From an uncultured Pseudomonadota bacterium (lineage in GTDB: Bacteria; Pseudomonadota; Alphaproteobacteria; RF32; CAG-239), in the NCBI GenBank assembly GCA_949297185.1, contig CASFRM010000013.1:774-64773 (forward strand): a DNA stretch of 64,000 nt. The letters run 5' to 3'. A program made the translations under genes and the position numbers. The notes under the pieces are model-generated. The model saw nothing but the letters and a program-made list of their open reading frames with translations, was not told the DNA's origin and did not search any database. Below, in pieces: positions 8,901 through 10,724 of this stretch. Numbering within the stretch: the first letter of the stretch is position 1; every line of letters begins with the position of its first letter.

Positions 8901-10724
8901 TTAAAATAAACTCAATACACCTCTTGCTGATTGCGAAGCCAGAGATAAAGAATTAATTGCCAATTGCTGACGTGTTTGTAAGGTTAAGTATTCAGCCGAA
9001 GCCTCGTTCATATCAGCCAAGGTCAAATTGTCCGCTCCGGTCTCTAAAATATCGCTCAAGCCTTCGGTAAAGTTAATGCGGGTTTTAATTATTGAATAAT
9101 GATTTCCCAATTTTTCCTGAAAACTTCTTACCGAGTTAATCGCCGCCGTCAGCTCATTCATTGCCTTGGTAACATCGCCCAAATTTTCCCATTTATCACG
9201 ACTTAATCCGATATTTTTCGAAGACATGTCTTTGCCTTCTACTTTATATTTATTCGAACGGCTTTCGTTTAAGGTGATTTCTTTCAAAGCGCCGTTAAGC
9301 AGGTTTATGCCTTGATATGACGCATCTTTAATCAAATTATCATACTCATCCAATATCAAACCATATTGTTTTTCATAACCGCTAAAATCTTTTTGAGCAT
9401 TACCATCCGCCTCGTTCATCAAATCTTGCGGTAAACTCCATGCCCTCACATTTTCAACCTTTAGCTTAGCTTCAACATTGCTGATATTTACAAAGTTACT
9501 TGTTCCACTTGTATTTTCGTGATGATAATTTTCTTTGAGTTGATACCATTTGGTAATTCCATTTCTAGAAAAAGCTAATTTTGCTCCTGCTGCTATATCT
9601 AATGTATTTCCATTTGCACTATTAGAAATACCGGAAGAATTTCCGGTATCAAAATAAATTTCCGCGGTTGCAAGAATATTAACAGAGTTTCCAGGAAAAT
9701 AAGTGGCTTCATTAATTCCCCAGCCGTTTCCGTTTTTTGTTTGTATTTTTCCGGCTATGTTAATTTGGCTTGCCTCATAAACCGATATAGCTCCAAAAGG
9801 TGTTAAAGGAATCTTTGCTAATTTTAAATTAATATTTGTTTCTGTAAGAATGTTAACAGTTGAATTTTTGTTTACAAAAATTCCTGCTCCTAGGTTTCCG
9901 TCAACAGATATATCAAAAGTTCCTTCTAAATCTGCGGTTGCGCTTCGATTAATATATATAGCACCTCTGGCGTCCTGATTTGGATTTTTATCCGAAAATT
10001 TTGTAGATATATTCAAACTTTTTATTTTCGCATAAACACCAACTACATTAACTGCCGCAGCACGGCTTATTTCTGCAGCACTATTATCATAGGTAATACT
10101 TAAATCCGCAACTTCGCAGTTGTTTTTTTCTATAGTAATCAAATCTACATTTGTCGAAGATATTGCCGAGATAGAGGAAAATTTATCGGTTGTGGTGTCG
10201 TAATTGCCAAAATATCCGACCCCGACCAGCTTTTGATTTTCTTTTAACTCCAACCCGCCGGAAGTTGAAATATCCCTCAAATCGATTTTGCCATATACGC
10301 AAATCGTTTCTTTGCCTGAGTTTATCGCATCTCGCAGTTCTTGTGCCGTAGATACTACCGCACCGTTTGCTCCCACTTTTTCAACAAACCATTCCTTATC
10401 CGGTACCGGCAAAGTAGGTGCCGTTGCCGCTTGCATGGCTGTCGCCGAGGCTTGTTCCAGAAACTCTAACCCCGAGGTCAATCCTTGATTGGCTGCCTCA
10501 ATGGTTTGGATACCCTGTTCCATACTGTTTAACAATTCCAGCAAGTCTGCCGAGCGATTAGTCAAAGAACGTGCTTGGTAATAGGCGGACGCATTGTCTA
10601 TTGCCGAGTTCACTTTCTTACCCGTCGCTAAAATAAGCTGAGTTTTATCCATTTGTTTGGAAATGTTTCGCAAACTTAGCAAATTACTGCGCATCGAGGC
10701 ATTTAAGGTGATGTTGTTATTCAT
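8901..10724 (-). CDS. Flagellin-family protein with a large central beta-helix-like insert
   Basis: 607 aa. The N-terminus (LATGKKVNSAIDNASAY...QGIQTIEAANQGL) matches the flagellin_N D0/D1 helices. The C-terminus (EYLTLQTRQQLAINSLSLASQSARGVLSLF) matches flagellin_C. The roughly 400-aa middle is rich in N/G/S/T repeats. RBS GGAGGTGAG sits before the ATG. Confidence 0.7.
   Translation of the reverse strand: MNNNITLNASMRSNLLSLRNISKQMDKTQLILATGKKVNSAIDNASAYYQARSLTNRSADLLELLNSMEQGIQTIEAANQGLTSGLEFLEQASATAMQAATAPTLPVPDKEWFVEKVGANGAVVSTAQELRDAINSGKETICVYGKIDLRDISTSGGLELKENQKLVGVGYFGNYDTTTDKFSSISAISSTNVDLITIEKNNCEVADLSITYDNSAAEISRAAAVNVVGVYAKIKSLNISTKFSDKNPNQDARGAIYINRSATADLEGTFDISVDGNLGAGIFVNKNSTVNILTETNINLKLAKIPLTPFGAISVYEASQINIAGKIQTKNGNGWGINEATYFPGNSVNILATAEIYFDTGNSSGISNSANGNTLDIAAGAKLAFSRNGITKWYQLKENYHHENTSGTSNFVNISNVEAKLKVENVRAWSLPQDLMNEADGNAQKDFSGYEKQYGLILDEYDNLIKDASYQGINLLNGALKEITLNESRSNKYKVEGKDMSSKNIGLSRDKWENLGDVTKAMNELTAAINSVRSFQEKLGNHYSIIKTRINFTEGLSDILETGADNLTLADMNEASAEYLTLQTRQQLAINSLSLASQSARGVLSLF

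Follow-up and report, generated by a model that had tools for sequence, protein, structure and literature searches.

A flagellin with a predicted beta-helix outer domain and a candidate leader RNA in uncultured gut Alphaproteobacteria

The filaments of Caulobacter crescentus are assembled from multiple flagellins, and FlbT acts with a regulatory flagellin in the translational control of flagellin mRNAs (PMC7591256). The outer domains of flagellins govern how a filament encounters viscosity, adhesion, phage receptors, antibodies and innate receptors. In a 2024 AlphaFold census, the outer domains of 16,948 flagellins fell into 682 structural clusters; hundreds of these types are without experimental study, and one pectate-lyase-like cluster is not listed among those with an experimental structure (PMC11532411). 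The gene described here lies on the minus strand of a 64-kb stretch of contig CASFRM010000013.1 from an uncultured alphaproteobacterium (the whole stretch is hereafter the window) and encodes a flagellin of 607 amino acids (aa) with a predicted right-handed parallel beta-helix between its D1 segments (Table 1). The protein is likely to serve in the filament as a structural subunit whose surface rod is a variable beta-helix; it belongs to a diversified flagellin repertoire. The most novel item at the locus is a structured leader RNA in front of the gene.

The flagellin and the fold of its insert

Judged from its sequence, the gene encodes a real flagellin. The original prediction recognised flagellin D0/D1 helices at both ends of the protein and quoted the strings LATGKKVNSAIDNASAY and LSLASQSARGVLSLF; both strings are present in the 607-aa reading frame and both terminal domains score above the Pfam thresholds, Flagellin_N (PF00669) at residues 8-101 (33.6 bits against a cut-off of 26.6) and Flagellin_C (PF00700) at residues 524-607 (33.4 bits against a cut-off of 23, profile positions 3-86 of 86). 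In NCBIfam, the protein partially matches models of large alphaproteobacterial flagellins. The closest solved proteins by sequence are the filament flagellins FljK/L/M/N of Caulobacter crescentus (E 2.5e-15), with the alignment to FljK covering residues 3-81 and 446-607, the latter on FljK 107-270. The start codon appears sound because a GGAGG box is located 7 nucleotides (nt) 5' of the ATG and the N-terminus aligns with those of the homologues. The full-length AlphaFold2 (AF2) model, built on a 63-sequence alignment, shows the canonical flagellin topology, ND0-ND1-insert-CD1 (with a beta-hairpin)-CD0, and matches flagellar filament cores in Foldseek with a probability of 1.00.

The N/G/T/S-rich insert that the original prediction put at about 400 aa is indeed there but measures ~347 aa (residues 101-447; N+G+T+S ~35% of residues). 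It can be divided into a conserved base (120-175), a variable body (176-370) and a segment that returns to D1 (404-447). In the full-length model, the insert is a central block of short strands for which the predicted local distance difference test score (pLDDT) is mostly >90, and the model of the insert alone (21 sequences) reaches a pLDDT of 91 and a predicted template modelling (TM) score of 0.91. All 50 of the 50 top Foldseek matches of the latter model in the Protein Data Bank (PDB) are right-handed parallel beta-helix proteins, including GH55 glucanases, pectate lyases, alginate lyase, AlgE4/6 epimerases, polygalacturonases, pectin methylesterase, phage tailspikes and Ag43; Vag8 and fucoidan lyases are also found among the structural matches of the beta-helix flagellin, and the matches in the viral library BFVD are beta-helix proteins again. 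All of these PDB matches of the insert are weak (E 3e-3 to 5e-2, TM score <=0.44, ~10% identity). A search of the PDB with the insert profile gives no sequence at E <=10; in Pfam and NCBIfam, the insert is without a matching family, and no enzyme family is detected there at E <=0.1.

Independent support for the beta-helix at the sequence level comes from an exhaustive search of the insert profile against 1.84 billion representative proteins, which yielded 203 relatives in all. In most of these, the match begins at residue ~101-108, that is, they have the flagellin architecture. About 16 long proteins match the repeat body alone (profile positions ~95-290), in 4-12 stretches and with E 1e-17 to 1e-7; the six that were scanned for domains are autotransporters, an inverse autotransporter and Beta_helix/NosD repeat proteins with fn3 or Ig domains (the families detected are the Autotransporter beta-domain, ESPR, IAT_beta and Beta_helix/NosD, the Pfam family 'Right handed beta helix region' included). 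The AF2 models, Foldseek and the remote sequence matches thus agree with the earlier guess of a central beta-helix, and the fold class predicted by the models can be considered established. The enzyme family is not, because the structural matches are weak and there is no sequence match in PDB, Pfam or NCBIfam.

The family is represented by >120 full-length homologues, all from metagenomes, with 40-63% identity over the whole length. In a profile search with the insert only, 119 of the 120 best matches carry flagellin Pfam domains, so that the insert module is essentially confined to flagellins. Averaged over 62 homologues, identity to the query is 0.75 for ND0, 0.58 for ND1, 0.78 for CD0 and 0.78 for the insert base, compared to 0.32 for the helix body, the least conserved structured region; going by this alignment, D0 is among the most conserved parts of the protein and is equalled by the insert base alone. 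Within the body, 4 of 195 columns are >=90% conserved and none of the invariant residues is acidic or basic; the insert length among the homologues varies from 271 to 436 aa, and so does the number of coils. Besides the base, parts of residues 371-430 are conserved, with Y394 and W429 among the conserved positions. The invariant polar residues at the base are K110, E129, K138 and Q164, and E139, D148, K165, Y171 and Y212 of the insert are near-invariant. In addition, there are two conserved cysteines in the insert, C142 and C203; cysteines are unusual in flagellins, and cysteine stacks are common within beta-helices. The combination of a varying body with a kept D1-side end is, as far as the aligned homologues can tell, the signature of an exposed, diversifying surface domain on a conserved docking base.

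The same pattern bears on the alternative that the protein is an enzymatic flagellin, in which case the filament would present thousands of copies of a polysaccharide lyase, hydrolase or epimerase that acts on mucin glycans or dietary polysaccharide, by analogy with the metalloprotease flagellins (flagellinolysins). Pectate, alginate and fucoidan lyases, GH55 glucanase, polygalacturonases, AlgE epimerases and phage depolymerase tailspikes are all among the structural neighbours, the base carries the invariant and near-invariant residues listed above, and enzymatic flagellins are an established precedent, as cited in the census (PMC11532411). Such an activity is nevertheless unlikely: the structural matches specify the fold class only, the body, where beta-helix enzymes have their catalytic groove, is the least conserved part and differs in coil number, and outside the flagellins, the relatives by sequence are not carbohydrate-active enzymes but autotransporters and adhesin-like repeat proteins. 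A helix body that varies in this way follows the pattern of an exposed surface layer rather than that of an enzyme. The suggestion that the flagellin fold had been repurposed as an enzyme or another secreted factor therefore finds no support, given the absence of an enzyme family and of conserved catalytic-type residues in the varying body. A rod that serves as a glycan-binding or glycan-cleaving module, so that the flagellum doubles as a mucus- or polysaccharide-active organelle, also appears improbable; in that case, K110, E129, K138/E139, D148, Q164/K165, Y171 and Y212 of the strongly conserved base would constitute the functional site, with reach and antigenicity determined by the variable coils. 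If true, a glycan-active rod would add a second kind of flagellum with an enzymatic or adhesive function to that of the flagellinolysins.

Flagellins of related gut genomes and the role of the protein

A scan of species-representative genomes identified 79 loci (denoted by L numbers, as are other contigs below), all of them in metagenome-assembled genomes (MAGs) of uncultured Alphaproteobacteria from human and animal guts, Proteobacteria bacterium CAG:495 among them. This group is presumably the GTDB order RF32; a literature search found nothing on the flagella of gut RF32, and a search for beta-helix hypervariable regions of flagellins yielded one irrelevant review alone. The MAGs encode many flagellins each, with at least nine flagellin loci in one of them and many loci at contig ends. 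The sizes of these flagellins are ~250-800 aa, with or without the beta-helix insert; a MAG often encodes two or three flagellins of the widespread beta-helix type. When the open reading frames (ORFs) of the 79 loci were clustered and the cluster representatives scanned with Pfam, FlbT was found directly 5' of flagellins in six loci and a FliK-FlgD-FlgE-FliF block in two, L059 and its counterpart L041. In the MAGs CALXPK, CALXWB and CALXVW, a beta-helix flagellin occurs together with these flagellar genes. The gene for a 720-aa beta-helix flagellin in L016, which scores 521 bits against the insert profile, has a FlgE-type hook gene immediately after it on its contig. Other beta-helix flagellins are isolated among housekeeping genes, as is the window copy.

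In the window, Pfam scans of ~55 ORFs over the 64 kb detected housekeeping genes only (among them SurA, LptD/F/G/E, LeuRS, RsmB, a MurC-like ligase, H+-PPase, NusA/IF2, PNPase, FtsK and MurJ), with no other flagellar gene and no second flagellin, and a tblastn search of the window with FlbT, FliK, FlgD, FlgE and FliF of the relatives gave no match, in agreement with the original prediction. The term 'orphan' that was attached to the gene is apt for the local neighbourhood only, because the lineage is genetically flagellated and its flagellin genes are scattered, with their middles swapped; most flagellins of the lineage stand alone and each genome has several.

The isolation of the gene within 64 kb, along with the presence of many paralogues per genome, some of which could have specialised, would be compatible with an exported flagellin-fold protein that acts outside the filament, either as a secreted adhesin or effector, as exemplified by Campylobacter FlaC, or as a regulatory flagellin like Caulobacter FljJ. 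Caulobacter employs such a regulatory flagellin together with FlbT (PMC7591256), and FlbT is present in the lineage. This role is unlikely because both D0 segments, which are needed for polymerisation and export, are among the most conserved parts of the protein, isolated placement is usual for the flagellins of these genomes, the wide spread and multiple copies of the beta-helix type suit a bulk structural subunit, and FljJ-type regulators are short, core-only flagellins. It is very unlikely that the gene is a relic, kept without current function in a genome that lacks motility. The 64 kb free of flagellar genes would fit a relic, with the rest of the host genome unseen, but the ORF is intact, with a good Shine-Dalgarno sequence and start; an identical 607-aa flagellin is called on two ENA gut-metagenome contigs, that is, in independent assemblies; conservation is strong in the >120 homologues and highest in the functionally critical D0; the structured leader is conserved upstream; and flagellar machinery is found in close relatives.

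The preferred reading thus remains a structural subunit with a variable surface rod, ordinary in its role although unusual in shape. Under this scenario, an uncultured, anaerobic gut alphaproteobacterium would build its filament from several paralogous subunits, this flagellin among them. The conserved D0/D1 helices would be exported via the flagellar type III apparatus and form the core of the filament by polymerisation, and the ~347-aa right-handed beta-helix, in place of D2/D3, would project from the filament surface. The conserved rod base (residues 120-175 and parts of 371-430) probably docks on D1 or on neighbouring subunits, whereas the rod body, varying in sequence and coils, would form an exposed surface layer that could be structural, antigenically variable or adhesive. 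The conserved D0, the canonical topology, the flagellar genes of the relatives and the hook-adjacent paralogue in L016 all point to a genuine filament protein whose surface domain is large, one of the options of the original prediction. The plain, if large, flagellin that it named as the refuting case is half borne out: flagellar genes are encoded in relatives, but the gene is not the sole flagellin and its centre is not an ordinary D2/D3.

Several observations weigh against the assignment to the filament. The two ends of a solenoid are far apart, which is awkward for an insertion into D1. There is no flagellar gene in the 64 kb, and the flagellar inventory is that of the window and the relatives. 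A filament with a beta-helix outer domain is without a solved structure, and none is among the structural matches. Finally, the base is as conserved as D0 and could be a binding or active site rather than a docking surface alone. The locus thereby poses a structural question, namely how a solenoid with distant ends can be built into D1 and accommodated on the filament lattice.

The flagellar loci of the relatives show additional features. In L059 (6907-11884) and L041 (9536-14278), and also in L063, L064, L071 and L074, two to four short flagellin genes (250-480 aa) are arrayed in tandem behind FlbT; in L059 and L041, FliK-FlgD-FlgE (700 aa)-FliF is encoded 3-8 kb downstream of the FlbT-flagellin array. 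A second FlgE-type gene, of 400 aa, is located beside flagellins in L016, L052 and L079, so that the lineage appears to have two hook-protein types. Near the flagellin and hook genes of L016 (5662-8416 and 13083-14255), there are genes for a GtrA-like membrane protein, a DegT/DnrJ/EryC1 aminotransferase and a GT4 glycosyltransferase, which are possible flagellin or surface glycosylation genes.

The leader RNA and the putative promoter

Comparison of upstream regions revealed a ~110-nt leader common to the window gene and several other flagellin genes. Its parts are a long-range closing helix, a small hairpin, a conserved single-stranded CAAGRAUUGA, a variable hairpin and a GGCUUUCUGCC...GGCAG hairpin. 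In the RNAalifold prediction from seven copies, GGAYRCAAC pairs with GUUGYRUCU as the closing helix, an internal hairpin is formed as well, and there are double-sided changes. The covariance model of these seven copies finds three non-training copies, in L017, L036 and L021 (44-62 bits), on the same strand and directly 5' of a flagellin, and no other confident match in 1.2 Mb. A metagenome scan adds at least five copies, again before flagellin starts; altogether, there are at least 15 copies, all directly 5' of flagellin starts among the matches listed. In a ten-sequence alignment, which was fitted to the model and includes copies from only ~6 lineages, 94.8% of the cells are paired, against 34-59% when the partners are slid, 8 pairs have double-sided changes, of which the slid controls have 1-3, and 0 of 500 shuffles attain the observed values. 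Rfam 15 has no match at gathering score over the whole window, and in a permissive Rfam search the best scores for the leader are 14.9-16.7 bits against gathering scores of 38-60. The leader is thus a candidate new cis-regulatory RNA of flagellin genes, proposed from the covariation of its copies, and a previously undescribed structured RNA in a lineage that possesses the translational regulator FlbT.

In the predicted fold of the whole window leader (minimum free energy (MFE) -55.2 kcal/mol, z = -3.09), the Shine-Dalgarno sequence is buried in a hairpin that reuses 3'-strand bases of the closing helix. The two alternative pairings suggest a translational switch, whereby the 3' strand of the closing helix in the window copy would pass into the hairpin that hides the Shine-Dalgarno sequence. 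Expression would then probably be controlled after transcription start, via a leader that is common to a subset of the flagellin paralogues. FlbT is the obvious candidate partner, and the leader is possibly an FlbT target; if confirmed, it would provide a defined RNA target for a poorly understood step of flagellin regulation. CsrA-type control was rejected as the primary idea: AGGA is present in the hairpin loop and in CAAGGAUUGA of some copies only, and in other copies, including the hairpin loop of the window itself, GGA is changed to GAA.

Leader-less flagellins in L004, L008, L014, L016, L043, L052, L056, L064 and L071 share a TGTGGA(A/T)AA motif, ~95-110 nt 5' of the ATG and often just past a GC-rich hairpin. 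The existence of this class beside the leader class suggests two differently controlled classes of flagellins per genome. The DNA pattern of the leader also has a chance match, unrelated to the leader, in ~45 human-gut contigs (L088-L164, e.g., L090 1090-1154), which represent a near-identical 65-nt coding stretch of a very abundant human-gut organism.

Upstream of the leader, a stem-loop with a U-run is presumed to mark the 5' end of the flagellin mRNA and is preceded by a putative promoter box (Table 1). The stem-loop could alternatively be the terminator of the upstream 452-aa gene. An equivalent hairpin is located 5' of the leader in the other copies. Among these are L083 and L003, whose upstream gene is divergent; the hairpin therefore appears to belong to the flagellin unit. 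A TGnTAnnAT-like box, followed by a stem-loop and a U-run, is found in the same place in 9 of 10 leader copies. A consensus scan called no sigma-70 site where one was expected, and its total of sites was below that of shuffled sequences. Promoters of the sigma-54 (GG-N10-GC) and sigma-28 (TAAA-N15-GCCGATAA) types were discarded, with no convincing match by eye in the 230 nt upstream.

Surroundings of the gene and comparison with known systems

Table 1. Features of the flagellin locus (window positions unless a contig is named) and copies of the leader on other contigs
Feature	Position	Strand	Evidence
Perfect 11-bp inverted repeat AAAAAGCCGGA/TCCGGCTTTTT, bidirectional terminator between convergent hydA and flagellin	8683..8710	.	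inverted-repeat search
Three REP-like hairpin repeats (CTCGG-N-CCGAG cores) and a partial fourth	8745..8896	.	pattern scan, two repeat families
Flagellin coding sequence, 607 aa and stop	8901..10724	-	uninterrupted ORF, Pfam, FljK/L/M/N relatives
C-terminal D1/D0, residues 448-607	8901..9383	-	helix 448-467, beta-hairpin 480-496, helices 515-569 and 574-606 (AF2)
Outer-domain insert, residues 101-447, predicted right-handed parallel beta-helix, ~10 coils	9384..10424	-	insert-only AF2, Foldseek, remote sequence matches
N-terminal D0/D1, residues 1-100, helices 9-33 and 45-100	10425..10724	-	AF2 secondary structure
Shine-Dalgarno sequence GGAGG, paired in the 3' hairpin of the predicted fold	10731..10735	-	sequence, MFE
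Structured 5' leader	10739..10847	-	covariance model, 83.9 bits
Stem-loop CCCGUAUGG...CCAUAUGGG followed by a U-run, presumed 5' end of flagellin mRNA	10864..10896	-	MFE and centroid folds
Extended -10-like box TGATAAAT, putative promoter	10897..10904	-	read by eye, inferred
Leader copies	L003 9836-9940; L022 9836-9940; L083 9880-9988; L012 9878-9982; L007 9810-9905		
Leader copies	L082 9857-9953; L017 9868-9975; L036 9807-9919; L021 8372-8472		
Leader copies	L094 11943-12048; L144 2884-2989 and 201-306 (-); L157 1371-1478; L158 3882-3987		

The neighbours of the gene had been described as a TPR protein and a degenerate GT4-like membrane protein. TPR matches are present in the 452-aa neighbour but are below threshold (17.7 bits against a cut-off of 27.5), and the 354-aa membrane protein shows no glycosyltransferase match and no other significant match in Pfam or NCBIfam, so that the GT4-like assignment is not supported. 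Both genes were rejected as partners of the flagellin because in L082 they are separated from it by ~5.6 kb of other genes.

On the other side of the flagellin, a three-gene FeFe-hydrogenase block (4754-8680) encodes 2Fe-2S thioredoxin-like, NuoF-like and HydA-like proteins. The slot 3' of hydCBA holds a flagellin in three genomes (window 6914-10724, L082 7950-11782 and L047 8082-12061), in convergent orientation with hydA in the window and co-directionally in L082 and L047; the insert of the flagellin in this slot differs between the genomes, in the manner expected of a hypervariable region, and that of L047 has no match to the beta-helix profile. The promoter-hairpin-leader-flagellin unit behaves like a movable or invertible cassette. 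The REP-like repeats between the flagellin stop and the hydA terminator are of the type GTCAYCCTCGG-N-CCGAGGRT, with 3 matches compared to 0.08 expected and none elsewhere in the window. The hydrogenase and an H+-pyrophosphatase (24595-27024) in an alphaproteobacterial genome fit an anaerobic, fermentative gut life. Farther away, a DUF2336 protein (368 aa) adjoins a 313-aa glucosaminidase-domain protein (56808-58926, minus strand), with an HD-GYP-type HD_5 protein (55096-56784) upstream of the pair; the glucosaminidase ORF (57985..58926) was considered as FlgJ-like and rejected, having no match to the rod-binding domain. SmpB (46238-46714) is followed by a 331-nt gap (to 47045), and tmRNA was not found anywhere in the window by ARAGORN or Rfam.

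Among the known systems, the nearest solved relatives, in both sequence and core fold, are FljK/L/M/N of Caulobacter crescentus (PDB 6xky, 8uxj, 8uxk, 8uxn and 9cef), an alphaproteobacterial multi-flagellin system with the FlbT regulator, as in this lineage. The FljK-type flagellins are ~270 aa long and have no outer domain, whereas the window flagellin has the 347-aa beta-helix between ND1 and CD1. The autotransporter passengers and Beta_helix/NosD (PbH1) surface proteins have a repeat body that matches the insert body. They use, however, type V secretion or Sec for export and have an outer-membrane anchor, whereas the solenoid of the window flagellin would exit via the flagellar channel, and the insert base (120-175) has no counterpart in them.

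Flagellinolysins, with their HEXXH metalloprotease outer domain, set the precedent that the hypervariable region can hold a functional non-Ig module (PMC11532411, PMC7643111). The window flagellin differs from these in its fold, and the HEXXH motif was not found in the 607-aa sequence, nor was a peptidase family match in Pfam. The giant flagellins of Bermanella and Oleibacter are >1000 aa long, with an enlarged hypervariable region and thicker filaments (PMC6248924). The window flagellin likewise has an enlarged hypervariable region but, at 607 aa, is within the range of large ordinary flagellins, so that the earlier label 'giant' does not apply.

Finally, the pectate-lyase-like cluster of the census likewise has a beta-helix outer domain and is known from prediction only (PMC11532411). 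The window family may belong to that cluster (#35). The window family is characterised by its occurrence in uncultured gut Alphaproteobacteria, a variable number of coils and solenoid relatives of the autotransporter type. The locus thus provides a concrete, well-modelled and widespread example of a beta-helix flagellin from human-gut Alphaproteobacteria, with several paralogues per genome and varying coils.

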